DNA of 64,000 bases, taken from positions 124,001 through 188,000 of the forward strand of contig MEDY01000054.1 of NCBI GenBank assembly GCA_001724265.1. The letters run 5' to 3'. This document shows positions 21,901 to 60,122 of the stretch, piece after piece. This stretch comes from Rhizaria sp. SCN 62-66 (lineage: Eukaryota). Each line of letters begins with the position of its first letter. Position 1 is the stretch's first letter. A program made the position numbers and the translations under genes. The notes beneath the pieces are model-generated. The model saw nothing but the letters and a program-made list of their open reading frames with translations, was not told the origin of the DNA and searched no databases.

Positions 21901-24900
21901 GCCGCGTCGACCGCCGCCGTGTCCGCCGCTGCCACAGGCGCCGAGGGCGCTGCGGGCGAGGCGGGCGTTGCGGCCGTGCTCGCGTGCGCGGTCGACGTAG
22001 CGCTGCAGCACGCGCTGCTGCAGCACTGCCCGATGCCCGCGCCGCTGCTCTGGCTGCCCCACCCCGCGCTGGTGGCCGAGGCCGAGCCCGCGCGGCCGGC
22101 CTGTCCCTGCGGCTGCGCTAGTGGCGCCGCGGCGGCGGACTCGCGCACCGCCGCCGCCGTGGCCGCGACGTTCCACCCCGCGCTGAGCGCGCTGGCGGCG
22201 CGCGCGGCACCCCAGTGCGGCGCGACGTCCGGCGCGCGCGTGCGGCCCGCGGCCGAGACGCCCGCGCTGCGCGGCGTGCTTTGGGCCAACAACGTCGCCG
22301 CCGACGCGCCGCGCTTCTGGATGGCCGCGCCGCACGCGCATGGCGCTCCGCATGCGCGCCTGTTGCTGCGCAGTCTTGCCGCCATCTTGGCCACGGCCTC
22401 GGCCGCCGCTGCGGCGCTGCCTGCCGCCACGCCAGTCGCCGTCGCGCACGCCGCCGCGGCCGCTGCGGTCGCCACGGTGCACGCCGCTGCGGACGCGTTC
22501 GCCTCGGCGCGCGCCGCACTGTCGCCGTGGGAGCGTGCGGTGTGCCCCGGCGTCGGGGACGACTTGTACACCGACGTCGCGGGCATCGCGCTCTTTGCCG
22601 CGCCCGCGGGCGCGCCGCTGTCGCTGCCGCTGCTGCTGCACCCGTTCCTGCCCGACCTGCGTCTGCTCGTACGCAGCTGCGCGCTCCGCGCCTCCGCCGC
22701 CGCGCTCGTGCTCGCGGCGCCCACTGCTGCAGACCAGCCGGCCTCCGCTGTAGCAGCCGCGGCGCGCGCGGGCCTCTCTGCGCTTTGGCGCGTCGCTGGC
22801 CCGCTCGTAGCCGCCGGCGTGCCCGTGCGGCTTGACTTCGATTCCGCGGACCTCGGCGGTGTCACCGTGGCCGAAGCCGTCGCGGACGCAGACGGCCGCG
22901 ACCGCCTGTCCGCGGCCATTGCTCTCTCGCCTGGCGCCGCGCCCAGCGCCAGCGAGTCCGCGCTGGCCGCGCTGCTGCTCACCGTCGCTGAGACCGCGGC
23001 CGAGCTGACTGTGGGCGCGCCCGCCGTCGTCGCGGCTGTGGAGGCACTGGAAGCAGCCGTCGCGGGCGCCGCGGGCGTGCAGGCGGAGAACAACCAGTCT
23101 GAGCCCCCCGCCGCCGCTGGTGCTGCGTCCGCATCTTTTTCCGCTGCTGCCGCTGCTGCTGTCGCAGAGCGCGTTGCCTCGCTGCCGCTGCCCGCGTGCG
23201 CCGAGCTCGTGCTGGACGCGGTGCTAAAGCTGCTGCGCCTGGTGTCGGTGCTAGTCGCCTCAGCCGACCCCCGCGCCGCGCGGCCCACCCTCGCCGCGTT
23301 GCTGCGCCACCCCGCGCTCGCGCGCGCGCTGCTCACGGTTGCGCCCTCGGCCGCGGCAGGCTTCGTCGCCGCGTCGTGCTGCCCCTTCGCCTCGCTGCGC
23401 AACGCCGTCGTGGCGATGGTCGACGGCGTCACCTCACACTGCGAGGCCACCGTCGCCGCTCACGACGCCGTGGCGGCGTACCCGCCCAACACCGTCGCCA
23501 CTGCGGGGCTCGCCGCGCCGTCCACCGCCGCGCGCGCGTGCTGGGGCCGGCTGGGCCGCGTCGCGAACGCGCGCTCGCTCCACCAGCGGGGCTCGCGCGC
23601 CGCGATGGCCGAAGCCGCCGCCACGGGCTCCGCCAAGCTGGTGCTGGCCGCGGCGCGCGCCGTACGCTGCCCCCGCGCTGCCGCCGCCGCGCGCGAGGGA
23701 GCCGTGGCCTCCTTTGGTCTGAGCTTGCTTGCGCGCTGCGACTGGCACACGCTTACGAACGTGACCCGCGCCGAACCCGCCGCTGCCCTTCCCGCTGCGT
23801 CTGTGCAGGCACACGCGCCCGCGCCTGCTGCGTCTGCCGCTGTTGCCACGCTGCCCGTGTTGATGCGCCTCTGGGCGCTGGCCGCGCGGCCCCTCGCGAG
23901 CGGCGAGGCCGCTGAGCTGGACGCCGCCGCGCGCCGCAGCTCCGACGCGACCGCCGCCGCCACGGCCGCCGCGACGCTGTCCGGCGCCGCGGGCGTTGCT
24001 ACAACGCTCTGGGGCCGCTGGCCGATGCTGCGCGAGGCCGTACGCGTGCTTGCAGTCTCGCACGCGCGCGCGGAGTCCAAGCGCGCCGCGGGGTCGCTGT
24101 CTGCGCACACCGCCGCGGCCGTCACGCGCGCTGCGACCGTGCCGCTGCCGCTGGGCGTCGCGCGCGCGTGGGCCCTGCTCTCGGGCGCGCCCGTCGCGTC
24201 GCCGCTTGACGCGTTGGCCGAGGACGCCGCGGTCGCCGCCGTTGACGACGAAGTGGCGACGGCGTCGGCAGTGATGGCGGGCGAGGCCACGCCGCACAGC
24301 GATGCCCCCGCGCGGCCGCTCTGCGCGCACGCCGCGCTGCTGCTCGAGGCTTTCGCGCGCCTGCCTTGGGCGCGCACTGCGCTCGACGCGATGCCAGTGC
24401 AGCACCGCGCGGGGCCCCGCGCCGCGCGCGCGGCCGTGGCGCATCTCTCCGCCGCGCTCGCCGCCGCAGTTGCAGCTGCGCCCGACTCACGCGAGAGCGC
24501 GTGGGCTGCCGAGGCCGCGCTGCTGCAGCCCGTGTCGGCCGTGCCGCAGACGCTGCAGACCGCGGTGCCCGCTTCGCGCGGCCACGTGGCGAGCAGCGGC
24601 GTGCTCTTCGACGGACGCTTCGAGGGCTCCGTCGAGTCCGAGGCGCCGTACCAGCTGCCCGCCGTAGTCGCGGCTGCCAACGCGGCCGCGACGAGCGCGC
24701 TGGCGACGTGGTGCGGCATCCCCGGCGCCCCGGGGCAGCGCGCGCCGACCGCCGCGCGGCTGGGTACGGGCCCCCTGCGCTCGGTGCTTATTGCGATGCA
24801 TGCGGGCGCGGTCGCCGCCGCCGCAGTCGTCGCCGCCGAGGCCGACAAGCCCGTCGGTCTCGCTGACGACGATGATGATGATGACGAGAACGGTGCGCGC

Positions 24901-26721
24901 GCGAGTACGCACCGCGGCAAGTCCGTGTCGCGCTTCTGGTGGCGGCGCGGGCCCGCGGACTACGAGCCCGCCGCGCCGTCGCTCTCGCGCCCGCAGTCGC
25001 TCGCGCAGTCGCCCGCTGCCGCCACGGCCGCTGCCGCAGCCGCGGAGGAAGAGGACGACGCCGCCGCGCACGGCTCCGCGGCCGCGCGGTCCGCGCTGCT
25101 CGCGCTGGCGACACTCTCGCTGCAGCCGGGCGGCGCCGTCGCGCGCTCGTGGTGGCGCCAGCGCGCCTGTCTCGGCGTCGCGCTCATGCTCGCGGCCCCG
25201 CTCGCCGCGCCCGTCGCGCTGCCCGCGGCGCACCCGCTGCTCGCCGCGCCGCCCGCGCTCGCGGCCGCGACTTTCGCAGCCGCGCCGCTGCTGCAGTCGA
25301 GCACCCCCGTGAGCGCGGGCGCGAGCCCCGGGCCGCTGGGCGCGGGCGGGCTGGCGCAGCTGCCCGTGCACGAGCTGTGGGCCGTGGCGCCCGACGTGCA
25401 GGGCGCGACCGTGGGCTCCGTGACCGCGTACCTCGCCGGCCCCGCGGCCTTGCCCGTCGCCGCGGGCGCGCACTCCGCCGCGCTGCTCGCCACCGCGGCT
25501 GGCAAGGCCCGCCGCGCGCTCGCGCCCGCGGCCTTCGCGACCGCGCTCGCCGTGGGCGCCGCCGCGCAGGCGCTTGAGGAGGCCTCGATCGGCGCTCTAG
25601 CGCGCGCCGAGACCCCCGCCGAGGTGCCAGGTCCCGTGGCGGCCGCCATGACGGTTGAGCACGCGCGCGCAGTCGCGTCCGCGGTCTCCGTGGCCGCCGC
25701 CGTCGCGCGCCTCGTAGCGCCGCGCGATCCCGTCCCCGTGGACGCGCACCACGCGCGCCGCGGCGATGAAGAGGAGGAGGGCGCCGGCCACGGCCGCGAG
25801 CGCTTCGGCGAGGGCGAGGGCGAGCCCCACGCGAGCGGCGCTGCCGCCGAAGCCGAGGCCGACGTGAGCGTCGAGCCCGACCTCGACGCCATGTTGTGCG
25901 CGCCGCCGCTGATGGCCGCGGTCGCACTGGCAACGCTGGCCGCGGCTGTGCACGCCACGCTGCCGCTGCTGCACGCGCTGTGCCCGGAGCCGCGCTGCGC
26001 CGCCGCCGCCGCTGCCGTGGCCGCGCCCGCCGCCAGCCAGGCCCTGCTCGCGGCCGCGGGCTGGACGGCCGCTGCAGCCGCCGCGCCTGTGCTCGTGCCG
26101 GTGTCCGCCTCCGCGGCGGCCGCGACGGGCGCGGGCGCAGGCGCGGCTGGTTGGGCCCGGCAGATGGTCGTGTGCGCGCGTGCCGGCCTGGCCTCGCTGC
26201 TGAATCTCGAGCTCAGCCCCAACCTCGCGACCTCGGTCAGCGAGCTCGACGCCAACGCGGCCGCCGCTACTCACGCGCGCTGCGCGCTGGGCGGCGCCAC
26301 GCTGGCCCTGGTGCGCGCGCACACGGCCCGCGGGCTCGCGCCGCCACTCGCCTTTGTCGCGCCCGCCGACAATGCCGGTCACGCGAACGTCAAGGCGAAC
26401 GCGAACGCCCATAACGACGCTCTGTTACGCGTGGGCGCAGCGCCGCGGCCGCTGCTAGTGCTATCGAGCTTGCAGCACGTCGAGCGCAAGGCCAGCGTCG
26501 CGGCGTGGCGCCCGCACGAGGCCGCGGCCTCGGCGCTCGCGCCCCTCGCCGCGGGCTTCGCCGCCATTGCCGCCGCGGAGCGCGCGTTTGGCGCTGACGG
26601 CGACTGCGCCGACGCGGAGGCCGCGCACGCGATCGCCGCAGTCGGGCTCGCGGCCGACGCCTTTGCAGCCGAGCTCGCGCACGCGATTGCGCCGCTGATG
26701 CTGAGCGGCCCGCCCCAGCGC

Positions 26722-26752
<31 letters not shown>

Positions 26753-29193
26753 GGGAGGGTGAGACGCTGAGCGACTTGCAGCGTTTCGCGCTCACGACTG
26801 TGGCCAGCGTCGCGTTCCTCGACTTGCCCCTGCTGCTGACTCGCGTGCTCGCCGCGCTGGCGCACAAGCTCCCGGCGGCCGCCTTTGTGGGCGCCATTGC
26901 GCCGACGCCGAACCTCACCGGTATCGACGCGCCTGTCGAGATCGCGGCCTCCTCCGCTGCGACGGCCGCGGGCGCAGCGCGCTGGCTGGCGCCTGTCCTT
27001 GAGTCCGCGCTCGTTGCCGCGCACGCGCACTCCGCGCGCGCAGGGCTCCGCCGCCGTCGCGCCGCAGCCGCGTTTGTAGCTGCGTTCGGGACCGTGCAGG
27101 GCGTGGCCGACACTGACGCAGCGTTCTCCGCGCTGGGCGTGCCGCGCGCGCCCGCCGACGCCGCCGCGAGCACGCTGGCGCTGCCGCCGACTCTGGCGCA
27201 CGTGTCCGCCGCGCACGGCGCCGCGCCCGCGCCCGACTGTCTGCTCACGCTGTTGCCGCTGGGCGTCGTGGCCGCGCTCGCGCCGTTCGGCCTGGTCGTC
27301 GCGCACAGCGGCTCCACTCAGCAGCATCAACACGCGCACGCAGCGCACGGCGCCAGACCCGCCGCCGCCGCCGCCGCCGCGAGGTCTGTGAGCGTGCGGC
27401 CCTTCACGGCGCTGCTGGGTGACGAGGCCGGCGCGCAGCGGCTGCCGCTGCTGCAGGCTGCGCTCGCCGCGCTCGCCGGCGCCGCGGGCCAGGCCGCCGC
27501 CGTGGGCGCCACGGACGCCATTGTGGCCGGCGCCGCGCTGGACAACGCCACCGACGCGGCCGCCTTGCGCCTGGCCGCGGCCGCCGGCCGCCGCGGCGGC
27601 GCTGACGCGGAGGCCGCCGACGACGCCGTGGTCATAGCCGCCGCGGGCGCCGTGCGCGCCGTGAGCGTGGACGCGCTGGCCGCGGCGTCCGGCCTGCGCA
27701 CTGCTGACGTCGGCTTCACTCTGCTCGAGGCCGCGCTGGCGCCCGTGCACGCCGCCATCGGGCGCGCCGCGCTCGCGCTGCCGCTGTGCACGGACCCCGC
27801 CGTGGCGGCGCTGGGGCAGCTGCAGAAGCAGCAGCAGCAGCAGCAGCAGCAGCCCGTGGTGGGCGGCGGCGTGCCCGTTATCGCGGAGCTGCCCGTGTGG
27901 CCGCAGCGCGCGGGCGCGGGCAGCGTCGCCGTGCTCTGGCCGCCGCAGCCGCCCACGGCGAGCGCGGGCCGCGAGCTGCTCTGCCTGTTCTCCGGCGGCG
28001 CGCCCGTGCTGCCAACCGCCGCGCTCGCGACGACGCACGATCCCGCCGTCGCCGCACTCGCCGTGCCCACGCAGATCCGTCGGGTCGCTGCGGGCGCCGC
28101 CGCCGCCGCCGCCATCGCGCTCGCGGCCGCTGCGACGCCCGCGGACGGGTCGGCTCTGGTGGCGCTGGCGATGGCGTGGCACGATGTCCTGGCCGTCGCC
28201 GCGGCGTTCGCGACCTTCTCAGCCGTCATCTCGCTCGCCGCGCCGCCCGCGGACGCCCGCGCCGCCGCGCCTAACGCGCGCACGCCGCTACTGCCCCATG
28301 TCGCGCTTGCGCGCGTGGCGACGGCGTCCGCGGGCGCGGTGGCTGCGGCTGCGGCGCCGCTGCTGCGCGAGATGCGGCGGCTGCACGATGCGCGCGCGGA
28401 GGGCTCGCTCTTCTCGCTGATTCGCCGCGGCCTGGGGCTGGCCGAGCCGGTGTATCCGCAGCAGCTGCGCTTTGTCGCCGGCGCCGCCATCACGGCCGAG
28501 GCCGCGGTCTCCGCCGCGGAGGCCGCCGCGAGCACGCTCGTGCGCCTCGGCTTGGGCGGCGCCGCGCTCGCCGCCGCCGCACCCGCGCTCTGGGAGCTCC
28601 CGGGCGTCGCACCCGTCGCGGACCTTTCTGTGGCGGCCGCCGAGTCTGGCGCGGGCGGGTCGCCGTACACAGGCCGCGGCCGGAGCGCTCCTCCCGCGGC
28701 GCCGCCGCGGCTCGACTTTAGGATGGAGAAGTACCAGAACGGCGAGAAGCTCGGCCGCGCCTGGCACAGCTCTTACGGCAGCGCGATCGTTGCTTTCGGG
28801 CCTTGGGCGCTCGACGCCGCGGCCGCCACGCGCGCCGCCGCGGTGATCGCGCTGGCGGGTCCGGCGCTCGCGCGCGCGTCGCTGCGGCTGTCGCACCGGG
28901 CCCCCGCCGGCGCCGCCCCGGTCGCCGCGGCGGGCGCGGCGCGGCGCGGACAGTACGGCTCTATCGCCGAGTCCGCGGCCGCCGCGTCGCTGTCGGCGGC
29001 CGACTACGCCAACTACAGCGCCGTCGGCGGCAACGCGGCCGACCCGGGCCGCCGCGGCGCGGTGCTGGTGCCCGCGCTCAGCGGCGCGCCGGTCGAGACC
29101 GAGATGGCCGCCGCCGCGCTCGCGCTCGCGCGCGCAGCCGTCGCCGAGGCCATCGCGGGGCTCGCCACGGCGCTGCCGCGCGGATGGGTCTAA
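3955..29193 (+). CDS. EPG5: Giant EPG5-like autophagy tethering protein; one reading frame of 8,413 codons with a single in-frame TAG at 12289-12291
   Basis: ORFs 3955-12291 and 12337-29193 are in the same frame and separated only by TAG (...SEA*HSASLYLAALPP...). EPG5-like blocks appear in order: LLLRCGGLRDHRFVLAAALRRGAGAGEW, SESELCALLACVPV, LCGSLPSLISLLL, LFEALPYERWRPCLTDLRVLEALLL. After the TAG come weaker matches (AAWALLWA, FPWLAYVML, LPLALQLVLTAP). Ends in TAA at the GC-to-AT boundary. Confidence 0.7.
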
Positions 29194-39865: not shown

Positions 39866-42181
39866 ATGGGCTCCGACCCCGTCACTTCCGCCCCGACGAG
39901 CGCGCCCGTGCCCGCGCCTTCCCCTTCCTCGTCTGCGCCCGCGACGCCGTCGATGCCCGCGGCGGACTTCGCGACGAAGCCCGAGGTGAGCGTGATGTCC
40001 GTGCTGGCGCCGATGCCACCACTGCCGCGCTCGTTCGACGTCCAGAAGCTCTTCCAGCTGCTCACCAATTTCGCCCGCGAACCCAACACGGACAAGCCGC
40101 TGGTGATCCCGATGGAGGACGCCAACGTGCGCCACTTTATTCACCAGACGGCGCTGCGCATGGACCTCGTGGCCGCCTCGGAGGGCTACCCGGCGCGCAA
40201 CGTGGTCATCTACAAGGGCCGCGAAGAGGAGGTGCAGAAGCTGCGCACCACGCTCCGTGACTTCGCGCGCGAGAGTGACGCCGGGCAGGAGAAGCTCTCG
40301 CTGCCGCCGATGCCCGCCGAGATGCGCTACACCGTGCGGCTGCTCGCGCGCGACTACGGGCTTGTCGCACTGTCCGAGTCGCTCGGCGTGGCGCGCCACC
40401 CCGTCGTGTGGCGCTCGCCGGACCGCCAGCGCATCCTCGCGCGCCTCCAGGCCTTCGTCTCCGAGCAGCCCCTCCCGGTCACCACCCCCGCTGCCGCCGC
40501 TGCTGCTCCTGACGCCGCTGCCGTCGCGGCCGCGGCCGCCAGCGGCGTCCCCGCCGGCGCCCGCGTCATCCCCCCCGTCTCCGGGGCTCCTCTGCGCTAC
40601 GCGACGACGCGGCTCGAGTTCCCGCCAATGGAGCCCGCGCTGCAGCACACGATCGCGATGCTGGCCACGGACCTGGGCCTGTTCCCGATCTCCGAGGGCG
40701 TGGCGGAGCAGAAGCACATGGCGGTGTACCGCGAGCCGCCGCAGGAGTTCACTGCGCTGCAGGAGCGCGAGGTCCGCGATCTCTTCACGCGCATGAAGCG
40801 CGCCGCCGCGGCATCCTCGGCTACTGTCACAGCCGCTCTGGCCGAGGGCGAGACGGTCGAGGCCATCTCCTCTGTCGACATCGCGGCTGCGCTGCAGGAG
40901 CTGGCCATCCCCGAGCACTACGGCCGCGGACTGCTGCAGCTGGCCCAGGCCACGGGCTCCATCACCGTGGGCGCCTTCTGCCATTACCTCCAGTCGCGCG
41001 AGCGCGAGCTGCGCGCCGTGTTTACGTCCTTCGACCGCTCGCAGACGGGCCGCGTGCGCGCCGCCGACGTGCTGTCAGCGATGCGCGCGCTGGGCATCGA
41101 GCCGACCTCGCGCGACTTCGCGCTGCTTCAGGCAGTGCTCACGCGCGCCAGCGAGTCGGGCGACGCTGGCATGAGCTTCGTGCAGTTCCGCGACCTGGTT
41201 TCGCTGCTTACGCCCGCGGACCTCAACGCGCTGGGCGAGCACAGGCTGGCCGCGGCCTCGCACGGCTTCACGGCGCGCGCGCCCGCGACCGAGGCCGCGA
41301 TGGGCAAGAGCGCGCTGTACGCCACTGTGGCTTCGGCGCTTAGCGGCGGCATCGCCAACGCTTTCTCGCGCACCGTCGTCGCGCCCTTCGAGCGCGTGCG
41401 GCTGCAGATGAGCGTGGACCCGGGGCTGTACAGCGGCATGGGCGACTGCCTCAAGCGCGTCTACGACAAGGAGGGCATCAAGGGCCTGTGGCGCGGCAAC
41501 GTGCTCAACGTGATCCGCATCGCGCCGCAGGGCGCCATCTCGTTCCTCACCAAAGACCTGGTCAAGGACGCGCTGCCGGCGTCGCTCAAGTACACGTCGC
41601 TGGGGCTCGCGCTGGCGTCGATGATGTCGGGCGCCATCTGCATGAGCGCCGTATACCCGCTCGACATGGTGCGCGCGCGCGTGACCACATCGCCGGGGCT
41701 GTATCCGTCCTGGCAGGCCGGACTCGCGCAGATCTACAAGCAGGGCGGCTGGAAGGGGCTCTTCGAGGGCGTGCACTACTCCAACGCCTGGGCCGCCGTG
41801 TACTACGGCGTGCAGTTTTACAGCTACGACTCACTCAAGCGCCTCTACGCACAGTACCGACGCGCCAACGGCCAGGAGGGGCCCATCTCGCCCTCGGTGG
41901 GGCTCGTCTTCGGCGCCGTCTCGGGCACGCTGTGCGTGTCGGCGGCGTACCCGTTCGAGGCCGTGCGGCGCAAGCTCCAGGTCCAGGGTTTCGGCGGCCG
42001 GCCCGTGCTTTATGAGGGCTGGTGGGACTGCGTCAAGAAGGTCGTCGGCAAGGAGGGCGCGCGCGGGCTCTTCCGCGGGCTCGGCGCAAACATGGTCAAG
42101 ACGCCGCCGTCGATTGCGCTCACCTTCTGGGCCTACGAGCTCCTCATGAAGAACGTCTTCCACGCTAATGTCAAGGCGTAA
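39866..42181 (+). CDS. Mitochondrial carrier of SCaMC (ATP-Mg/Pi) type with degenerate EF-hands and three N-terminal R3H-like domains (771 aa)
   Basis: Carrier repeats SRTVVAPFERVRLQM, VYPLDMVRARV and YPFEAVRRKLQ, plus GLWRGNVLNVIRIAP. SCaMC-like EF region FCHYLQSRERELRAVFTSFDRSQTGRV. Three R3H-like units at about 40040-40735. Ends in TAA. Confidence 0.9.
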   Translation: MGSDPVTSAPTSAPVPAPSPSSSAPATPSMPAADFATKPEVSVMSVLAPMPPLPRSFDVQKLFQLLTNFAREPNTDKPLVIPMEDANVRHFIHQTALRMDLVAASEGYPARNVVIYKGREEEVQKLRTTLRDFARESDAGQEKLSLPPMPAEMRYTVRLLARDYGLVALSESLGVARHPVVWRSPDRQRILARLQAFVSEQPLPVTTPAAAAAAPDAAAVAAAAASGVPAGARVIPPVSGAPLRYATTRLEFPPMEPALQHTIAMLATDLGLFPISEGVAEQKHMAVYREPPQEFTALQEREVRDLFTRMKRAAAASSATVTAALAEGETVEAISSVDIAAALQELAIPEHYGRGLLQLAQATGSITVGAFCHYLQSRERELRAVFTSFDRSQTGRVRAADVLSAMRALGIEPTSRDFALLQAVLTRASESGDAGMSFVQFRDLVSLLTPADLNALGEHRLAAASHGFTARAPATEAAMGKSALYATVASALSGGIANAFSRTVVAPFERVRLQMSVDPGLYSGMGDCLKRVYDKEGIKGLWRGNVLNVIRIAPQGAISFLTKDLVKDALPASLKYTSLGLALASMMSGAICMSAVYPLDMVRARVTTSPGLYPSWQAGLAQIYKQGGWKGLFEGVHYSNAWAAVYYGVQFYSYDSLKRLYAQYRRANGQEGPISPSVGLVFGAVSGTLCVSAAYPFEAVRRKLQVQGFGGRPVLYEGWWDCVKKVVGKEGARGLFRGLGANMVKTPPSIALTFWAYELLMKNVFHANVKA

Positions 42182-42518: not shown

Positions 42519-42636
42519 AAAAAAAAAACGTTATACTTTTCTCGTATTATGCGTGTCATACTTGTGCAGTGAGCCATGCTAATCTTCTCTGTATATTTCC
42601 AATTTTTTCTGAGGCACGAAGTTTCCTTCGGCCGAC
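42519..42636 (-). ncRNA. U6: U6 spliceosomal snRNA
   Basis: The minus strand reads a 5' hairpin GGCCGAAG-GAAA-CUUCGUGCC, then AAAAUUGGAAAUAUACAGAGAAGAUUAGCAUGGCUCACUGCACAAGUAUGACACGCA (ACAGAGA box, AGC triad, ISL), ending in T10. The 5' end is approximate. Confidence 0.96.
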
Positions 42637-48358: not shown

Positions 48359-50366
48359 ATGCAATCAATCAATCGGATTAAATCCAGTTTGTGCGAGTCA
48401 CTCGTTGGCTTCCTTCTCATCTTTGTGGTGATCTTTGGACTCAGCTACAACGAGAACCGCTCCGTCAGTACGTCCCTTCTTTTATGTCTCTGTCAAGCTC
48501 GCTTTATACACTGATCTGGCTAATAACTTTCTGTAAACAGTGCCTTGCTATGTTTTCTAGCGCCTTATTTGCCTGTTTTTTCTTGAAACATTGCTACTTT
48601 TCGCACTCGGCGCGCTCGCGCCGCAGATACTGCCCAGTTCCTGGCCGACACCGAGGCCAGCACCGTGACCATCCCGGCGGCCGCGCTCAACGACCCCGCC
48701 GCGCTCGCGCCTTACATCGGCAAGAACATCCATGTCATGGTACGCTCTTGAGCCATTATTATCTTTCTTGCACTCTCAATCTGTTCGCTCTTGCAGCCTC
48801 CGTTTCCCGCACTCCTTTCTCTACTACTCCCTTCACTTCACACGCTCCCCGCCATCTTCACCGTCCGCCTTCACGCCGCGCCCGCACGCAGATCGAAGTG
48901 CAGGGCGCGCCGCTGCGCGACCCCGTGTTCGGCGTGCAGCACCCCAACGCACTGCGGCTGCGGCGCGGCGTGGAGATGCTGCAGTGGGTCGAGCGCGAGC
49001 GCGCACTCTCGGACGAGGAGAAGAAGGACCGCGTCGAGGGACGCGGGAGCTACGGCGCGCTCGTGCAGGACGGCAAGCAGTACTCGTACGTGCAGGAGTG
49101 GGTCTCGGAGCCCGTCGCGAGCGGCCGCTTCATGTTTCCTCACATGGCCTCGCCGCCCAACCCGCCGCAAATGCCCTTCTCGGCCTTCTCTGACGTCCCG
49201 CCGGAGGCCGCCAAGCCCGATGACGTGCCCAGCGGCGCCAGGGCCAGCGACGTGCTAGCCGTATCGTCCGAGATTGGGCGCGCGGTCGCCACGGAGCGCC
49301 CGCTCCCAGTCACCTCCAGTACGTCAAACGATGCATTTGATTTGAAACAAACAACTTGTTCTGCTGCGATTTATTAATCGGCAGCACCATCATCCAAAAT
49401 TGTATAATACGCGTTATGTTTATCTCAAAACTCTTTCTTTTGATGTCATTATTGACAAATTAGACTGTTTTCGTCTGTCCCCGTCTGCTGAAGCCTTCTC
49501 CGGTTCGCCCTGGGTCACTCATGCGTCACTCGTCCCACCTCTCACAGTACTCTCACCACCCCCTCTGTGTCCTTTTTGTTTTCGCCGCAGTCCACGATGT
49601 GACGCTGCCGCCGCTGCCGAGCATCCACCACACCTTCGCGTTGACTGGCCACAACGGCGGCGCGCTGCTGCTGCGCGCGCCCTCCTCGTACGCGGCCTAC
49701 GCCGAGGCGCCGCCGCACGTCGGCGACGTGCGCGTGTGGTTCTCCGCGGCCCCCGGCGGCGCCACGGCCACCGTGCTGGGCTCCCTCGCGCGCCGCGCCG
49801 GCGGCGTGCTCACGCTCACCGGCCACGACGGCTCGGCGGAGCGCTGGGGCGAGCCGTTCCTGCACGTCGAGCTGGGCTCCGCGCCAGTGTCGGCCGCGTT
49901 CCGCTCGCTGCACAGCTCCAACTGGTGGAAGACGTGGGCGCTGCGCGTGGGCGGCTGGCTGGCGCTGCTGGTGGCTTTCTCGCTGCTCTTCTCGCCGCTA
50001 CACGCCGTGGCCGAGGCGCTCCCACTGGTCGGACCGCTGCTGTCAGCGCTGCTGGGGCTGGGCACGGGCGTGGTCAGCTTCGCGCTCGCCACGGGCGTCG
50101 CCGCCGTCACCATCGCGGTCGCCTGGTTCGCCGTGCGCCCCGCGCTCGCGCTTGCGCTGCTGGCCGTCGCCGCCGCGGCCTTCTTCGTCCCCGCCTGCTT
50201 CGCCAAGAGCAGTAGCGCGCGCGCCGCAGCCACTGCTGGCGCCGCCACTGCCGCCGCCGGGGCTGCCGCGGCGGGCTCTGATGTCGGGCAGGAGCAGGGG
50301 CAGCCGCTGCTTGCGCGCGGGCCCTCTGCCGCAGCCTCGGCCTCGGCGGGCAACAAGCGTGACTGA
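48359..50366 (+). CDS. TMEM43: TMEM43/LUMA family membrane protein, 4 exons, about 474 aa
   Basis: Exons 48359-48467, 48627-48739, 48892-49318 and 49591-50366. Motifs: N-terminal TM followed by NENRSV, LRDPVFGV, LRRGVEMLQWVE, PHVGDVRVWF, NWWKTWALRVGGW, IAVAWFAVRP. Ends in TGA. Confidence 0.92.
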
Positions 50367-50575
50367 GATCAAAGATGATCTCAGTGTCGATGTGACAAAA
50401 TCTATGCTTTCAAAACAAATTGTGCGAAGTGTATATAAGTGTATTTTGTGAATGAATTAATGTATTGAAATGAACAAGGCAGTGATAATAAATAGTTCTT
50501 TCAATAGCATATATACATATATAGAATTAAACATTGATGAAAAACAAATATAACAAACAAACGTTTTCCTTGCTC

Positions 50576-53500
50576 TTACGCTGACTCACTCGTCTTCCCC
50601 GCAGTAGCTACAGCCCTGACACCCTGAGCAGCCGCAGCCGGAGCAGGAGCAGAAGCAGACGTGGGCGCAGGCGCGGGCGCAGCAGCGGCAGCGGAGGGGG
50701 CAGCAGCAGCAGCAGCGGCGGCTGCGGGGGCGGGGGCCGCAGCGGCAGCGGCGGGCTAGCCGCTGCCCGCCTGTGCGTGCGCGTGTGCGTGCGCGTGCAG
50801 GTGCGCCAGCGAGCAGCGCGCGCAGACCCACACGCAGCGGCCGGCCGCGCGCGAGCACTCCACGCAGCACGCAAAGACGGCGCCGCGCAGCGCGGCCTGC
50901 GCCTCCTCCAGCTGCTGCCGCAGCCTGCGCTCGGTCGCGCTCGCGACGACGGCGCCAGCGGCAACGGCAGCGCTAGTCGCCGTCGCAGCCCCAGTCGCAG
51001 CGTCAGCAGCAGCGTCAGCAGCAGCAGCGGTGGCATCGGCGTCAGTGCCCAAGGGCCGCACCGCGTCGCAGCGACAGCCCTCGCAGACGGCGGCGCGCAC
51101 GGCCGCGGGGAAAGCCGCGGCACGCAGCGCGTCTTCGCAGGCGGCCAGCTCCGCGGCGGCCAGCGCGGCGTCCTCGGTCGCGACCGCCAGCGCGTCCCGC
51201 AGCGCATCGCACCGCGCGCCGTCGCCGCCACCGCTCTTGGCGCTCTCCAGGGCGCGGAGCTCGGCCGAGAGGGAGGCGGCGCCAGCGCGGTAGTCGTCGC
51301 AGAGCTTGCGCAGCGCGCGCGCGTGCCAGCGCTGCGCTGCCTCGGCCGGCGACCACACCAGCGCCCCGGGCACCAGCGTCGGCGTCCCAGTCGCAGTGGC
51401 GCCCGCGCCCGCGTCGCCGGAGCCGTAGCCAGAGTTGGGGAAGAGGGGCCGGCCGCGGTGGTCCAGCAGCAGCGGCCGCAGCGCCGCCGACAACGACGAC
51501 GACGAGGCAGAAGCAGCAGCAGCAGCAGCAGTATCGGGCAGCGGAAACGGGGGTGGGGCTGGAAAGGCCGCGGCGGGCGCGGCATCGATCTCGACCAGTG
51601 CGGTGAGGAGCGCCTTGGCCAGCCGCTTGGCGAAGTCCTTTACGTTGGCGGCGCCGCCGGCTTCTGTGTAGTTGACGAAGGCGTTGCTCTGGAGCGCGCC
51701 GACCAGGTCGAGCAGCGCGCGGGCCTGCGCGGCACGCGCGGGGCCCAGCGCGGCCTCGTCGGCGGCGGCCAGCGCGCGCGGGGCGCGCGTGCTCCTCAGC
51801 GTGTGCAGCTCTGCGAAGAGCATCTCGACCACGGGCAGTACGGGCGCCGCCGCCGCCGCGGCCTTGGCGCGCGGGGCGGCGCGCTCGACGCGCGCGGCGC
51901 GGTCGCACTCGGCGTCGTCGCCGGCCGAGACGAGCGTGAGGCGCATGCGGCTGGGGCCGGCGTGGTGGCAGACTGCGAGCAGCGGCGCGCCGTCGAGCCC
52001 CAGCGCGGCGACGCGCGCGGGCGACGCACCCAGCTGCTGCCACAGCGCCGCGGGCAGCTCCGCGCGCATGGAGCGCCAGCGGCCCTCGAGGATCGCGGGG
52101 CCGAACTCGGTGAGCCAGGCCGCGGGCGCGAGTGCCTGGCGCGGGTTGACCGTGCCCGCGGTAACGATGCCCATGGCCAGCAGCGCGGCCGCCAGCGGGA
52201 CGGAGCTGAGGCGCGACGACAGCATCACCGCGCAGCCCGTGAAGGCGAGCCCCGCGGCCGCGAGCGTCTCGACCAGCGCGCGCTCCAGCCGCCCCGAGCC
52301 CAGCGCGGCGCGCGCGCGCAGCGAGGCGGGGCCAGGCGGCGGCAGCGGCTGCGGCGCCAGCGCCAGGATGCGCGACGACGCCGAGCACAGCAAGTACACG
52401 TGGCTCGCGGGCTCCCACTCCTTAGCCTGCTGCTCCGTCGCGGCCGCAAGCGCGGCGGCGGCGGCCGCGGCCTCTTCGCGGGTGCCCGAGCGCGCGGCGG
52501 CGGCGGCCGCGGAGACCTGCGCGAACGCGGCGGCTGAGGCGGCTGAGGGCGCGCCCGCGGCATAGCCCATCACGAACTGGTTGCCGGTCGCGTAGCGGCG
52601 ACGCGAGTGCGCCACCAGCGCGTCGAGCGGCCCGCGCAGCCAGCGCCACGCAGGGTCCACGGGCTCGGGCGAGACCGACGCCGCGCCCAGCGCCAGCGCG
52701 CGCTCCTCCGCAGCTGCCGCAGCAGTAGCCGCCGCCGCAGCAGCAGCAGCAGCAGCGCCCTTGCCCGCGCATGTGCCCTTACCTGTGCCAGCGGCTGTGC
52801 CTGCAGCAGGAGCGGCGGCGGCGTCGGGGAGCGCGGCGGCGGCGGCGGACGCGGAAGAAGAGAAGCTGAGGCGCTGCAGCAGCGCGAGCCAGGGCCGCTG
52901 CACCTGCAAAGCCGCCTGGTCCTGCTCCTGCTCCTGCTCCGGCACTGGCGTCTTGGCCTTGGCCTTGGCCTTGGCGTCAGCCTTCGGGTCAGAGTCAGCC
53001 TGCGTTTGCGCAACCTGCGTCTGAGCCTGCTGCGTCTGCGTCTGCGTCTCTGCCGCGGGTGGGTCCCTGTCGAGGCGCTGAACGGGCTCGCCGTGCTCCG
53101 TGGCGCGCACGGTGACGAGCGCGCCCAGCAGCCGCAGCACGAGCGCGGACGTCGCCTCGGGCGTGTGCGCGACGGCCCCGGCCAGCAGCGCCGGCGGCAG
53201 CGCGCGCATGAAGGCGTTCAGCACCAGCTTGTCGCACTCGCCGCCGCCGCTGCCGCTGCCGCTGCCGCTACTGCCGCTGCTGCCGCTGCTGCCGCTGCTG
53301 CCGCTGCTGCTGCCCTCAGCGGCTGCGCCAGCAGGACTCGCAGCACCAGCAGTGGAGCTAGCGCGGGCGCCGGCGGTACCGGGGCAGCCGGAGCGTCCGC
53401 AGCCGCAAGCGAGCCCGCGGTAAAGCGCGGCGGGATCCAGCGGTGGCGCGCGGCTGCGGCGACGCAGCTCGGGGTCGGCGGCGCTGGCGCGCTGGCGCAG

Positions 53501-54057
53501 GCGCTGCACGGCGGCGGGCCGCTCGACGCCGCCGTCCTGCAGGCGCCACTCGAGTGCGACCTCGACTGGCGGCCCCGCGGCGCCGGGCGCGCGCCGCAGC
53601 GCCGACACGGCCGCAGTGATGTGCGGGACGGGCGCCTGCAGCGATCCCACGCCCGTGGCGGGACCCGGCACCACGCCCGCGGCCGGCGCCGTCATCAGCG
53701 CGCGCTGCGCCGCGGCCGCAACGGGCACCAGCTGCTCGGGAACGCACGGCAACAGCGGCAGCGGCGAGACCGGGTCGCCGAGCGCGGATGTGGCGGAGGC
53801 GGTGGCGGCAGTAGGAGCAGCAGCGGCAGCAGGAGCAGTGGCTGCGCCAGCGACAGTGGTGGCAACAGCGGCGGCTGGGAGGGCCACGGAGGCGCCGGCG
53901 TCGGCGCGGCCGTCGGTGCGAGTCTTGCTGCGCTTGTCAGCCTTGTCCTTGGCAGAAATAGCCTCGTCATCGTCAGAGGAGTCGGCGTCGCGCTTGCCGT
54001 CACTCTTCTTGTCCTTCTTGTCCTTTTTGTCCTTCTTGTCCTTCTTATCGGCTTTGA

Positions 54058-54105
<48 letters not shown>

Positions 54106-54817
54106 CCTCAAGTGCGCGTTTGCGAGACCACGACGACGACGAGGAGGAGGAGTCCTGGGCAATCATACTGTCACCTTTAGAGCTTGCGCTAGAACTAAAG
54201 CTAGAGCTAGAGCTCGAGGAGCTGGGCTTTGCGGCGGAAGCTGCATCTCTCTTTCTGTCTGACGATGACTTAGAGCTGCTACTGCTACTGCTGCTGCTGC
54301 TCTTGCTACTGCTGTTGCTGCTGCTAGTTGGAGAGGCCGCCTTCACGGCGGGGGTGGCCGCCTTGCTGGAAGTGGGCTTGGGGGTCGGGGCCGGAGCCGG
54401 GGCCGGAGCCGGGGCCGGAGCCGGGGCCGGAGCCGGAGCCGGAGCCGGAGCCGGGGCCGGCGCGGGGGCGGAGGCGCCGGTGCGGCGGCCACCGCCCCAG
54501 AGCGGCATCAGAGCCGTGTCATAAACGGCGCGCTGCTTGGCGAGCTCCTGTACGGAGAGGCTCTCGAAGGCGCGCGCGGCGCGGAAAGCGGGCTCGCGCT
54601 TGACCCAGTGCTGGCCGACGATGTGGACCCACTCGACGGTGCACCAGGGCGAGCCCGCCTGCGCCTTGACCACAACGCCGAACAGCTGCTCCACGTGGAG
54701 GTTGCGCACGTAATCGTCCTCCGCCAGGCCCAGGTTCGCGTCGTCGATCGGGGCGAGCAGCAGCGTGCCCTTGACGACGTCCTCGGCCGTCGCCGTCACC
54801 TGCTTCGGGGTCGCCAT
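50576..54817 (-). CDS. PiggyBac transposase-derived (PGBD-like) protein lacking catalytic aspartates; in-frame TAG at 50758-50756, next stop TAA at 50578-50576
   Basis: Colinear piggyBac-like blocks: RRRYATGNQFVMG, HVYLLCSASS, GCAVMLSSRLSSVPLAAALLAMGIVTAGTVNPRQALAP, LPVVEMLF, LLDLVGALQSNAFVNY, DFAKRLAKALL. C-terminal Cys/His cluster CEGCRC...CCVECS..VWVCARCSLAHLH. The protein is 1353 aa to the TAG and 1413 aa to the TAA. Confidence 0.7.
54059..54102. repeat. (GCT)n microsatellite encoding poly-Ser on the minus strand
   Basis: Pure gct run of about 14 units. Confidence 0.9.
54388..54470. repeat. 6-bp tandem repeat encoding an (AP)n linker on the minus strand
   Basis: About 13 units of gccgg(a/g). 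Confidence 0.9.
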
Positions 54818-55481
54818 AATCGGACTCACTACTCTCGTGTCTCTGCGAAGGGGATAATGCAAGCGCTGAACGCGCAGAATGTGAGTTTAGAGCTGCAAAA
54901 AGAGGTATATGGAACGATGTGAGAGAAATCTCCCTTTCCAGCCAATGTATCCTTGTCAAGACGCACAGCAACACTCTCGGATAGGTGAGTGATGGGGCAG
55001 ACGCTAACGCGTTGTGTTATCGCCTATATATATACAAAACCATCGTGTAATAGCCATTAAACAGAATTCCGTAATATCAAACGGTCTATTTTATCAAAAA
55101 ATTTAAAGGCGAGACTTGAATTCATCGCACCACTGCAATATTTCACTTCAAAGGTAGATGCTCCACCACAACCACAAGCATACGAGTCGTCGCGGAACGC
55201 AAGTGATAATGAACATAAAATCAAGATGATGCACACAATAATACAAGTCGTCGTTTATGTGGAAAACATAGCTCGCGGAACCTTTAATAAAATAATCTGA
55301 TACATGTATTAATAAGCCTTCTGAACCTATCCTGGAATGCGGATCTAAGAAAACCCGACTCCGTAACATAGCACACATCGTCACACGCACACCAGACTCA
55401 GTGACCTCTCTCTGCGAAGTATGCTCTCCCTGGACGCAGGCGCCTTGTTCCCCCGTTACCGGCAGCGCGCTTGTACAGCGC

Positions 55482-57988
55482 TCAGTCGTCGTCAGCGAGC
55501 GGGGGCGCCTCGAAGAAGAGCGGCAGCCGGCCCTCGAGGCAATCCTTGATGATGTCCAGCCCCGCGCGGAAGGTGTCCGGGCGGCCTGAATCCTCGCACC
55601 AGCCCTTGCGCGCGGCGTAGGCCTCGCAGACGCGGTACGCCGACCACACGAAGCGCGCCGCGTGCCCGCCCGCGGATCCGGCCACGGTGAGGTCCTCGGC
55701 CAGAGCGCGGTCCAGCCGCGCGATCAGGCCGTCGCCGTCCGCGCCGTCGTCGTCGTCGTCGTGGCCGCCGCGGCCGCCGCGGCCCTTGGTCTTGTTCTTG
55801 ACGGCCTTGCCGCCGCCGGCCTTGCTGGCGCCGGGCCGGCTGGCAGCGACCTTGCCGCCGCTGGCGCCCGCGCCGGCCAACGGAGACGTCAGCGTGCCCG
55901 GCAGGAACTGCGGGAAGACCTCGGAGCCCGAGACTGCGCAGTGCTCGCCCAGGAACCCGCGCGCGGACGCCGTGCTGTTGTCGGCCACAGCAGCAGCGGT
56001 AGCGGAGGTGACGGAGCGCGCGCCGCCAGACGCGAGCGCGCCGCGGCCGGCCTCGGCAGTGGGCGCGAAGGAAGGGATGCGGCCGGGGGTCAGCGCTCCC
56101 GAGAGCGCGCAGTCCGAGTCGGGGGCCGTGTAGGGCGCGAGCGCGAAGGCCTCGACGAGCAGCAGACGCTCGGCGAGGAACTCAACGCACGAGTAGGGCT
56201 CGCGCAGCTGCGGCAGCGGGAAGATGCCCATGAGCACCTGCAACGGGCGCGGCATGTCAGCGGCGGGGAAAACGAGCCCCGGGCAGTCGCAGAGCTGGAT
56301 GTCGTCCTCGACCGTCACGCGCGCGATCGTCTGCAGGTGCTTGGTGTGGCCCGGCGTGTTGGAGACCGACACGGCGGTGCGCCCCAGCAGCGCGTTGATG
56401 ATCGACGACTTGCCCGCGTTGGGGTGCCCCACGAGCCCGACGGTGAAGACCTCGCCTGGGGCCGCCGCGCGGTAGGCCCGCTCGGCGCCAACGCGCGCGC
56501 GCTGCGTCGCCGCAGCCACAATGTGCGCCTTCATGCCGCGCACAGCGTCCGCGCGGCGCACCTTGGACACCTTGGTGCTCGCGAACCGCAGCAACGCCTC
56601 GCGCGCCTCCTCTTCGTCGTCGTCGGCAGCAACAGGAGTCGCTGTGTCAGCGGCAGTCTTGGCCTTGGCTTGGGCCTGGGCGTCGAGAGCGAGCTGCTGC
56701 TTGTGCAGCTGCTGCTTCTTGTCCTTGGAGGCGGCCGCGGCGGCCACGGCGTCGTCGTCGTCGCGGGCCGCCGCGCGCAGCGCCGCCGCCGCCGCAGCGA
56801 CCTCGGGGTCGCCCTCGGCCTCGGAGTCGGCCTCGGCCTGAGAGTCCTCGGCCTCAGCCTCGGCCTCGGAGTCCTCGTCCTCGTCTTCGTCCTCGTAGTG
56901 GGGGTGGTGCGCAGCGGAATTCGCGTCGTCGTCGTCGTCGTCTGTGTGGTCTGTGTGGTCGGCGCCGTCGGCGGGGGGGTAGAGCTCGCGCGCGTAGCGG
57001 CGCCAGGTGTCGAGCACCTCGGCGACGCCCACGGGCGCGGGCCGCTTGACGTTGGCGCGGCCGTCGAGCCCCAGCACGTTGCGGCGGCGCACGCGCAGGT
57101 CATGGTCCTCGAGCGTCACCGTGCCGGGCAGCGGGTAGGAGGAGAAGAGCAGAACCTCGAGCCCCGGATAGCGGCGCTCGAGCAGCGCCTGCCAGCGCAG
57201 CAGCACGGCCGAGGGCACCAGGTCGATCTTGTTGAGCACAAGCACCATGCGCTTGCGCATCTTGGTGACGACGAAGTCGTACAGCGAGGGCGGGAAGTGG
57301 AACAGCGGGTGACGCGCGTCGGCGCAGAGCACGAGGAGGTCGGAGAGCTCGCACACGCGCCAGAGCTGGCGCCACACGTCGAGGTTGTGCTCGAAGTGGT
57401 TCAGCCGCGACGGCGGGAAGGCGTTGTACACGATCGCAAGGTACTTCTCAAAGCGCTCGTTCTCGTTCGCGCGCACGGCTTCGCGCGTCATCTTGTTGTT
57501 CCAGTACGGGCGCAGCGGGATCGGAATGATGCGGCTGCGAAGGAGAATAACACGGGCAGGAAGGGAGCGAACGATGATGTCAGAAAAGGGGAATGTGAGC
57601 ATGTGTTAATGCAAGGGTGTGACTTCAAAACATAGATGTGCGAAAATGAGAAGTGCTTTCAAAGTGTGTAGGGTTGAAATACGTACCTATACATGCCGTC
57701 ATCGGCGATGCGCTTGGCGTCGGAGTAGTAAAAGGGGCGGAAGGCAGCCTTGACGCGCTTCTCGATGTCGATGCGCGACTCGCGGCTGTGGAAGACGGTG
57801 AAGATGGTGTTCTTGTTGCCGCGCGCGCTGGCCTCGGCCTCAGCATCTGTCAGGCGAAAGTTGTGTGACTCCTCCTCCACCACGGTTTGGTTCGTGCTCA
57901 GGTCCTCGGAGTGCATCGTCGTGCGGTCCGAAGCGCGCTTGGCGTTCATCTTGAGCCGGCGCTGCTTGCCGGACATAAACGTCGCCAT
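55482..57988 (-). CDS. GNL1: GNL1/HSR1-type circularly permuted GTPase (YlqF/YawG family), 2 exons, 784 aa
   Basis: Exons 57988-57687 and 57534-55482, intron GTACGT..CAG. Motifs: HFEHNLDVWRQLWRV, DARHPLFHFPPSLY, G4 NKID preceding G1 GHPNAGKSS, G2 TPGHTKH, G3 DCPG. Ends in TGA. Confidence 0.93.
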
Positions 57989-58121
57989 TGTGTCAGAGAT
58001 ATTACCTCAAAAGGTGTTTATACAAAGCCTACTCTGCGAGAAAAGATAATCCTCTTTCTACGGAGAGAGTCAATCACAGAAACAACTATGCGAGACCTCT
58101 GACCCTACCCTTCCGCCCTCC

Positions 58122-58134
58122 ACCACAAAAAAAA
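58122..58134 (-). promoter_or_regulatory. Recurrent upstream element TTTTTTTTGTGGT (copy upstream of GNL1)
   Basis: Identical 13-mer about 135 nt upstream of the GNL1 ATG. Confidence 0.5.
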
Positions 58135-59135
58135 GCTGACGGCCAACTGAAACCAGGTCAGAGAATCAATTCAAAATAGCGTTTAAGAAAATAATAAACA
58201 GTTTCCTAGTATAATTAGATATTATAATAATATAAAATTATTTTTTCATTAATTTATAACGTGTAAACATGATGTATACATTTTATTGAAAATAATTGGT
58301 AAAAAATAATTAAATTACGTTTTTAATTATTTTATACTTTTTAAAAAATATTAATGACTTCTAGCATCGTTTAAGCACAACTGGATCATCCCTTAAACCT
58401 TTTGTTGCGCACAGAAAAACGAAAGTTTAACGCAAACACATAGTTAATAAAATAGTTAAAAATGTAGTTAAATTCTAATTCTAATTTAATTAATGACACA
58501 TATGTTTTTATTGATGTCAATTAGTCAACACTTTTTAAACAGTACATAAATCACTAAATAATTTTTTAATATGTTTAATTAATAGTGGTATTAATTTTAG
58601 TTAATTAAACTATTATTTTAACTCATTTTAACAGGAAATGTCAAAGCATACGTCTAAACGAAGTGAAAAACCTGCAAAACTGCAAATGTCTATTCAATAT
58701 TACTTTTTGCAGTGCAGCGTTTGCACTGCACTGTAAAGTATCACAAATCAACATGATTTTGATCGCGAACAACGCTAACATTGTTCATCATTTGGCGTAT
58801 TGTTTGGTGAGCACGTACTTGCTCTGGTGCGAGCACTCGCACGATTTGTGCGCAAATCTGTCAAGGCAAACGCGTTCAAGCTGTCGCTTATCTATTAATT
58901 AGATTACATGCTCCGTACTACTCTTAAACCATCACTACATAATCCATCACAAGGACATTACACGAACGTCACACGAAACGCGTGTGTAAAGTATAAGTCG
59001 AATTTCACTATCACATTTTTTTTTCTGGTTCCGTTATATCCGCAGTGATCTTGTCCACCAACGTCAAACAATCAACTTTCGAGGGATATTATCGCCTGCA
59101 TGATGAGCAATGGAATGAAAGACTAATTGATATGA

Positions 59136-59181
59136 TCAAGCGGATGTGTATGGCACGTTCAAGCGGATGTGTATGGCACGT
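59136..59181. repeat. Perfect 23-bp tandem duplication
   Basis: tcaagcggatgtgtatggcacgt x2. Confidence 0.9.
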
Positions 59182-60122
59182 TTATATTAATACGTTAGTT
59201 GCAGCATCTTCCAAAACCATGGTAACACCTCAAACGTACCCCACATACCGAATGTATGATGGAATGCGAGCTGTCAAGTCGTGGAAGGGTGCCGTATTGG
59301 ATCACAAGCTGTGACCTACACGCATCTTTTCGTTCAATTCATGTCATAGTCGGTACTTATTAACATTTACATGCGGTTACGCGGCTGCGTAGTTAGTTGT
59401 ACGTGACTGTGACGGAGGCTCTGCAGTTGTCGTTCTGTGACAAGGGCTCTGCACTGCAGATGGTGACCGTAGTTAATACTGCGTCGGGGGCCGATGCAAC
59501 AACAGCGCCTGTGACTGCGAGTGCGGCCGGCGTTCTGCGCTGCTGTCAGGAGCACATGTGGACACTTGAGGATAGATTCACTGCATAGCTGTTCATAAAA
59601 AAGTTATATCCGTGTAACTTTAACTTGAAGATGACATTGTCATCAAATTTCAGTTGCTCACAACTTCTCTAGACGCTGTTATCAAAGTGAACGACTTGCG
59701 ACCAGCAGTTGAGTAATTGGAACGCGTTGAGACAACCTCGGCATGCGATTCCACCAATCCGACCTTGCACACAACTTTGAAGATGTCGCTCAACATCAGG
59801 ATCTCCGTGAACTCGAAAATCGCACTACAAGCGATAATTAAACGTTAAGTTTTCTATCATGTTTTAGTTTTAATATGTATATTACACATATTTGACTTGA
59901 GATCCTTATCCTCTTATCGCCTCTCCACAGTTTAAAGGTAACTGCTCTGGCCATCTTTATCTCACGTATCTCTACATGTATCTTTATTTCTGCGCTTCCC
60001 AGCCAACTCCGCAGGAATTAAATTGCTATAAACTTATATATTCTTGATTGCTCATCGAGTATCGCTATACCCGCACCCTAAACGAGCTCCTGACAGCCTC
60101 CTGTCTCGCGCAGCGACACGCT

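Follow-up and report, generated by a model that had tools for sequence, protein, structure and literature searches.

A probable domesticated, non-catalytic piggyBac derivative in a GC-rich contig of Rhizaria sp. SCN 62-66

Vertebrates and ciliates are known to carry domesticated piggyBac genes. The gene described here lies on the minus strand of a 64,000-nucleotide stretch of Rhizaria sp. SCN 62-66 (assembly GCA_001724265.1, contig MEDY01000054.1, positions 124,001 to 188,000; hereafter the window, in whose own numbering positions are given), and it is most likely an extremely diverged further case of this phenomenon, i.e. a domesticated and inactive piggyBac derivative. A first-pass annotation had already read positions 50790–53230 in this way. 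Its observation is partly confirmed and its interpretation partly supported: the piggyBac ancestry is probable and the loss of the second catalytic aspartate (Asp) was recovered, while the sites proposed for the first and the third Asp remained unverified. Amino acid (aa) numbers count from the TTG codon of the 1368-aa open reading frame (ORF), in which the ATG codon is aa 16.

The vertebrate genes PGBD1 and PGBD2 are described in PMC5381638 as having lost the three catalytic Asp residues (the DDD triad), with a host function that is not known, and the same paper gives the vertebrate piggyBac-derived orthologues as being under purifying selection (Ka/Ks 0.12–0.43). The present gene resembles them as a stationary host gene probably coming from a piggyBac transposase and lacking the triad. 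However, PGBD1 and PGBD2 still match the Pfam family, whereas this gene stays below the Pfam threshold and has no orthologue in the databases searched, and its host is an uncultured GC-rich microbial eukaryote. PGBD1 also has N-terminal domains of its own. The Paramecium proteins PgmL1–5 are, according to PMC8086355 and PMC9942806, piggyBac-derived, none of them having an intact DD(D/E) and all keeping the C-terminal Cys-rich domain; these sources, together with PMC6143343, present them as non-catalytic partners of the active PiggyMac. For PiggyMac itself, binding to DNA and to histone tails has been tested (PMC8086355), and the structure of a piggyBac transposase has been solved by cryo-EM (PMC9942806). 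A catalytic site that is not intact and, putatively, a retained C-terminal Cys-rich domain are common to the PgmL proteins and to the present one, but the PgmL proteins have an active paralogue at their side and serve the programmed DNA elimination of ciliates, whereas the window is not ciliate-like (coding GC about 75%).

The piggyBac of Trichoplusia ni and the piggyBac-like elements (PF13843 together with PF13842) share with the gene the order of the blocks DNFFTS...GTvR.NR, NAY...F..eL and the CxxC...CxxC finger. In comparison to the moth element, the gene lacks the DDD triad (Ser882 standing at one of the positions) as well as terminal inverted repeats (TIRs) and TTAA ends. Its product is 2.3 times longer, with multiple Ala-rich insertions and a 540-aa N-terminal extension, and the first 330 aa of the putative transposase region are unrecognisable.

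Resemblance to piggyBac transposases

Reference sequences were collected by scanning public contigs for the motif YNxxMGGVD(xxDQ), which gave one viral locus, L006, and 118 metagenome stretches; the scan of viral contigs had produced six loci, of which L006 alone was piggyBac-like. The motif loci included 29 ORFs of at least 280 aa, and L006 additionally led to five database proteins with PF13843. All 31 of the 31 sequences aligned in A2 matched PF13843 (best E 1.5e-103). The custom profile was constructed of 32 piggyBac proteins, piggyBac being the single family named in advance.

Some of these loci have features of their own. On L006 (361–2549, plus strand), a metagenome contig of a giant-virus bin, lies a piggyBac-like transposase gene in which the motifs DE, D(R)FF and YNKIMGGVD are all intact. 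Near 1520–1560 this gene passes from one reading frame into another, owing either to an intron or to a frameshift. Two loci of one metagenome contig, L056 (475–3381, minus strand) and L057 (1136–4036, minus strand), hold ORFs of 969 and 967 aa. As the piggyBac motif of both stands at residue 666, they have an N-terminal extension of about 200 aa in comparison to the usual 600-aa transposases.

Against the custom profile, aa 541–1368 scored 8.6 bits, which was reached by one of 1000 shuffles within 20-aa windows, by none of 1000 within 40-aa windows and by none of 1000 global shuffles. Chunks of 17 other ORFs of the window scored at most 2.1 bits, as compared with 8.6–10.3 bits for the candidate. 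The resemblance lies in three blocks (Table 1). Block B scored 10.3 bits in the segment aa 871–930 (reached by 0 of 2000 decoys) and 9.0 bits in the longer segment aa 811–930 (0 of 1000 shuffles). Block C (NAF...FAKRLAKALL; segment aa 1040–1100) scored 3.3 bits and block D (CxxC...CxxC; segment aa 1300–1368) 8.5 bits, both again with 0 of 1000 shuffles, the highest shuffle of block D having 6.0 bits. Block C is weak, and haemoglobin alpha matches the same stretch at similar strength. All three blocks are collinear with the profile. When a natural null was formed of 1343 pieces of 60 aa from the six-frame translation of the window itself, block B (aa 871–930) ranked first, block C second with composition correction and ninth without, and block D second with the correction and first without.

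Also direct comparison with the reference proteins points to block B. BLASTP aligned aa 850–916 with reference P0006 (22 of 67 positions identical, 33%; E 1e-4), and when the candidate was compared with all 32 references the best E was 0.005, while the best among 27 control queries was 0.17. Hmmalign aligned only the best local block. The piggyBac-like blocks had been reported to stand in the correct order, and this holds for the SSRLSS/GTV, NAF and Cys blocks, which beat the shuffles and are collinear; the blocks proposed around FVMG and LFAELHTL are at chance level.

Features of the two parts of the region were further compared with a protein atlas of 7.7 million clusters. For aa 690–1368, all five clusters listed carry PF13843 on 85–100% of their members (best score 0.85, 147 of 256 features shared), and for aa 541–870, from which the best block is excluded, the top three clusters carry it on 33, 19 and 11% of the members at scores of 0.84–0.83; scores below 0.9 are leads only, and a part of a protein may not be embedded independently of the rest, two points that count among the objections of the next paragraph. 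For both parts all ten best family-bearing matches share the family or the clan. Even so, an unrelated protein would be expected only rarely to lead to exactly the family that had been named beforehand.

Several results weigh against piggyBac ancestry. In the Pfam search the whole protein gave no family at E ≤ 10. PF13843 (DDE_Tnp_1_7) appeared in two of seven sub-pieces (E 0.35 and 0.19; 10.5 and 11.4 bits; profile positions 189/205–243), ranking there below Asparaginase_C (E 0.0055–0.074) and PC_rep, and in none of ten shorter segments, so that the maximum of 11.4 bits is to be set against a curated cut-off of 22.4 bits, which no piece reached. Exhaustive phmmer search of aa 541–1368 among 1.84 billion representatives found nothing at E ≤ 1e-3. 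Word-indexed searches gave no match at E ≤ 0.01 among the 8000 candidates scored for aa 690–1368 and none at E ≤ 10 for aa 720–1110, and 594 pattern matches in a scan of metagenome loci for relatives yielded no confirmed one. Against PDB, phmmer with the whole protein listed 27 sequences at E ≤ 10 (best 0.086), all low-complexity matches, and with the core aa 810–1100 haemoglobin (0.15) and asparaginase (0.2) came on top; no piggyBac chain was among the PDB matches at E ≤ 10. Hhalign gave block B an E of 0.012, yet a probability of 3.5% (4.1% with a small alignment). No search against curated families or whole databases reached significance. The AlphaFold single-sequence model of aa 720–1110 was unusable for judging the RNase H-like catalytic fold (pLDDT, the predicted local distance difference test, 41.3), and with this low-confidence input the best Foldseek match in PDB had an E of 1.0.

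Also the custom profile left much of the region without support. Six of nine segments, each compared with 1000 shuffles, were unsupported: aa 541–600, aa 725–780 with FVMG (−4.3 bits, reached by 109 shuffles), aa 811–870, aa 931–1000, aa 1001–1050 with LFAELHTL (−3.7 bits, reached by 55) and aa 1240–1300. Aa 541–870 as a whole scored −1.3 bits, reached by 277 of 1000 window shuffles. The full ORF was not listed at E ≤ 10 in the six-frame profile scan of the window, because of the bias correction. Furthermore, CxxC...CxxC is a generic zinc-finger pattern. The C-terminal Cys/His finger, said to be kept, has 8.5 bits on the custom profile, and Pfam zf-Tnp_2 (PF13842) was not hit.

Single blocks of an Ala/Leu/Gly-rich protein can match unrelated families, here asparaginase and haemoglobin, at similar strength. 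The piggyBac match carries more weight than these because the latter are best-of-thousands picks, whereas piggyBac was specified beforehand, is met in three ordered places and is agreed upon by a second method.

Catalytic positions

In moth piggyBac the catalytic residues are D268, D346 and D447, all of which putatively active elements conserve strictly (PMC5381638). The D of DnFF, i.e. the second Asp, occupies profile column 317, which is D in 27 of the 29 references covering it and which aligns to Ser882 of the candidate. Near-invariant residues are kept at G903 (G in 29 of 30 references), T904 (T in 29 of 30) and N1060 of NAY (N in 27 of 30). Judged from the alignment, the loss of the second catalytic Asp is as well supported as the piggyBac homology itself.

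For the first Asp, the full-length MAFFT E-INS-i alignment places TREE (aa 794–797) under the DE motif instead of FVMG; neither placement is supported, and in either reading there is no Asp at the DE position. Spacing counted back from N1060 would put the third Asp near aa 1023–1027, and aa 1015–1034 are without Asp. An intact DDD triad could not be assembled under any alignment reading tried. All the strings that the first-pass annotation had quoted exist (FVMG at aa 763, SSRLSS at 882, LFAELHTL at 1015, Cys clusters at 1260 and 1332–1350). Of the three Asp replacements it had proposed, the second, at Ser882, is the only one that the alignment demonstrates, the assignments of FVMG to the first and LFAELHTL to the third being without statistical support.

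Gene status and alternative origins

The minus-strand ORF 50756–54862 encodes 1368 aa from TTG, or 1353 codons and a stop from ATG 54817, and no intron was seen. The likely start is the ATG, at which the protein-atlas record of the identical sequence begins. The span annotated earlier covers only about aa 545–1357, the 3' two-thirds, and the gene thus extends 1.6 kb further in the 5' direction, by an N-terminal half of 540 aa. Its frame contains no stop in 1353 codons, in comparison to 12.2 expected from position-specific composition (P about 5e-6), while the other five frames include 4–30 stops each over the gene. GC content at third codon positions (GC3) is 0.85 overall and 0.94–0.97 across aa 766–1065, that at second positions (GC2) 0.59–0.68, and codon periodicity is strong. 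Relative synonymous codon usage of the gene and of the pooled neighbouring genes is correlated with r = 0.98. The earlier claims of an intact ORF, host-like codons and insertions, the last visible as Ala-rich runs in the translation, all hold.

In the polyA-selected metatranscriptome X7, three exact contigs lie within the gene (51041–51224, 53551–53871 and 54591–54771), and depth is zero in the intergenic bins 50474–50821 and 54824–55171; a run of unspecified type from the same study has a contig over 54492–55500. Since the contigs show no strand and RNA libraries may hold DNA, those of X7 give merely a weak hint of transcription. By its open frame, GC3, codon usage and polyA contigs, 50756–54817 is a real gene.

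No sign of a mobile element was found around it. All 25 listed of the 442 inverted repeats round the gene are GCN trinucleotide low complexity, and between the AT-rich flanks two 9-mers are the only exact matches. TTAACCC and GGGTTAA are absent from the 64-kb window and TTAA from the gene, in agreement with the statement of the first-pass annotation that TIRs are missing. Within the window, tblastn gave only self matches and the custom profile no other piggyBac-like ORF. The lack of TIRs, the single copy in the window, the host codons and the open frame fit a host gene rather than a transposon.

The three collinear blocks and the atlas features, although weak evidence obtained in a targeted way, make piggyBac ancestry of the C-terminal part probable at the level of sequence comparison. 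We also regard as probable the reading that includes this ancestry, namely a host protein of 1353 aa in which the C-terminal part (aa ~850–1368, possibly from ~541) is a domesticated, non-catalytic piggyBac derivative. Drift, insertions rich in Ala and an extreme GC pressure would have made the transposase part almost unrecognisable, with blocks B (second Asp), C (NAY helix) and D (C-terminal Cys finger) as what remains of it. Since piggyBac elements that are putatively active conserve D268, D346 and D447 strictly, the protein would be unable to cut or join DNA, and it would therefore act through the leftover scaffold and the zinc finger. By analogy with PGBD1/2 and PgmL, its role may be nuclear, in DNA or chromatin binding or in scaffolding, and the long Ser/Lys/Asp/Ala-rich N-terminal half may form a disordered, possibly nuclear-targeting region.

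Against this stands the possibility, which we find rather unlikely, of a lineage-specific protein rich in low complexity and without transposase ancestry, in which the piggyBac-like strings would have arisen by chance in Ala/Leu/Gly-rich sequence and the zinc finger would be a generic one. It agrees with the failure of every standard homology test, with the Pfam fit of the best block to Asparaginase_C and PC_rep at least as good as that to PF13843, with the haemoglobin alpha match of block C, and with the want of profile support in aa 541–870, where the first DNA-binding domain and the first Asp are expected. It has to contend with a family named in advance, for which three blocks each beat 1000 of 1000 shuffles, come at or near the top of the 1343 natural pieces and follow the order of the profile, and with two protein parts that retrieve PF13843 clusters among the 7.7 million; the asparaginase and haemoglobin matches are best-of-thousands and collinear with nothing. 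If the ancestry is accepted, the gene might instead be a decaying piggyBac-like relic, a pseudogene whose frame would be open for no other reason than the rarity of stop codons at 75% GC. Spurious long ORFs are indeed frequent in this DNA (two, of 586 and 551 aa, overlap the gene in antisense), catalytic residues are lost, and constraint is not shown, orthologues being absent from the databases searched. The relic is nevertheless very unlikely considering the stop counts of the gene frame and of the other five, the codon periodicity (GC3 up to 0.97 with GC2 of 0.59–0.68) and neighbour-like codon usage, the in-frame fusion of the transposase part to the 540-aa extension, the exact contigs in a polyA RNA library and the lack of transposon ends. 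For an active autonomous piggyBac-like transposase gene nothing more than the family resemblance speaks, and that explanation, already contradicted by Ser at the second catalytic Asp, by the lack of a YNxxMGGVD-like motif and of any Asp in aa 1015–1034, by the missing TIRs and TTAA-CCC ends and by fully ameliorated host codon usage, is hardly credible.

If the gene is indeed a domesticated, non-catalytic derivative, it adds one more independent piggyBac domestication, in a GC-rich wastewater protist, and shows the extent that drift can reach, below every curated threshold and with three short blocks left, while the frame is still maintained. It also suggests that surveys relying on Pfam count too few host genes of transposase origin where genome composition is extreme. 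A more specific role, in which the protein would target a piggyBac-derived DNA-excision machinery to chromatin as its non-catalytic subunit, with an active paralogue elsewhere in the genome of this non-ciliate eukaryote, has in our judgement only a slim chance of being right; if true, partners of the PgmL type, and with them perhaps programmed DNA elimination, would exist beyond the ciliates.

Architecture of the gene and contents of the window

Table 1. Parts of the gene and its flanks, with positions in the 64,000-nucleotide window.
Feature	Position	Strand	Basis
Whole gene	50756..54817	-	ORF translation, atlas record, stop counts, GC3, codon usage
N-terminal non-repetitive region, about aa 16–130	54473..54817	-	Residue entropy 3.5–3.6 bits
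Low-complexity region, about aa 126/131–540: AP repeats, poly-Ser, KKD repeats, Ala/Pro-rich runs, GSS repeats	53243..54472	-	Translation, entropy profile, tandem repeats
piggyBac-like region as annotated earlier, aa 541–1368	50759..53242	-	Statistical support only in aa 871–1368
FVMG, aa 763–766, proposed site of the first Asp, unverified	52565..52576	-	Segment without profile support
Block B, aa 877–914, putative counterpart of DNFFTS...GTvRsNR (strand 4 and helix with the second catalytic Asp)	52121..52234	-	Profile 312–349
Ser882, in place of the second catalytic Asp, which is D346 in the moth enzyme	52217..52219	-	Profile column 317
LFAELHTL, aa 1015–1022, proposed site of the third Asp, unverified	51797..51820	-	Segment without profile support
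Block C, aa 1053–1088, putative counterpart of the ivNAYilY...eFr.eL..qL helix region	51599..51706	-	Profile 454–491
Block D, aa 1332–1360, putative counterpart of the piggyBac cysteine-rich domain	50783..50869	-	Profile 529–559
3' intergenic region, partly AT-rich, towards a convergent gene that ends at 50366; without a transposon end	50367..50755	.	Sequence, flank comparison
5' intergenic region, AT-rich	54818..55481	.	Sequence

The Cys and His residues of block D follow the pattern CC-x2-C-x6-C-x3-C-x2-C-x3-H-x-H-x-H within the last 40 residues (about aa 1332–1358), the His residues falling in a simple GCGTGC-like DNA repeat, and a further Cys cluster is present at aa 1260. At the other end of the protein, the AlphaFold single-sequence model of aa 16–130 was unusable (pLDDT 38.5), and Pfam gave a weak hint of SH3-B_UBE2O (E 0.11). 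The same region, TATAEDVVKGTLLLAPIDDANLGLAEDDYV, bears a weak likeness to designed double-psi beta-barrel proteins of PDB, and this to both of their halves (E 0.024, 17.8 bits), but the likeness is below significance and without Pfam support.

The window carries a full-length gene of U6 spliceosomal small nuclear RNA (42524–42625, minus strand; 77.6 bits, E 5.6e-18) between two protein-coding ORFs and is thus eukaryotic nuclear DNA. It consists of long ORFs at 70–79% GC with AT-rich spacers between them. DNA of the window was found in metagenomes from bioreactors, wastewater and related sources (12 rows from seven studies), three of the rows containing at least half of the sampled words. For 50300–55500, metagenome runs of seven studies from 2015–2025, on bioreactors, wastewater, activated sludge and fuel cells, contain near-identical DNA, and a comparison of four runs gave three variant positions among those listed. 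Because of this near identity and the three listed variant positions, the source organism appears to occur widely in engineered water systems and to have diverged little there. When reads were placed on the sequence at 85% likeness, many joints and loose ends arose at the GCN repeats.

Upstream of the gene, on the same strand, the next gene encodes a GTPase (Pfam MMR_HSR1 in 55482–57602). Nowhere in the window is the AT content higher than at positions 58001–60000 (GC 0.378), which contain no ORF above 109 aa and lie between a GTPase gene and a protein-kinase gene on diverging strands. Two giant ORFs of 2778 and 5618 aa (3955–12291 and 12337–29193, both on the plus strand), separated by 45 bases, gave no Pfam family at E ≤ 0.001, the second as scanned over its first 4888 aa, and together they may form a single gene of about 8400 aa. 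In a 771-aa ORF at 39866–42181 (plus strand), three mitochondrial-carrier repeats (E 8.3e-60) come after an R3H domain (E 1.2e-18), and this ORF is either an unusual fusion or two genes sharing a frame by chance.

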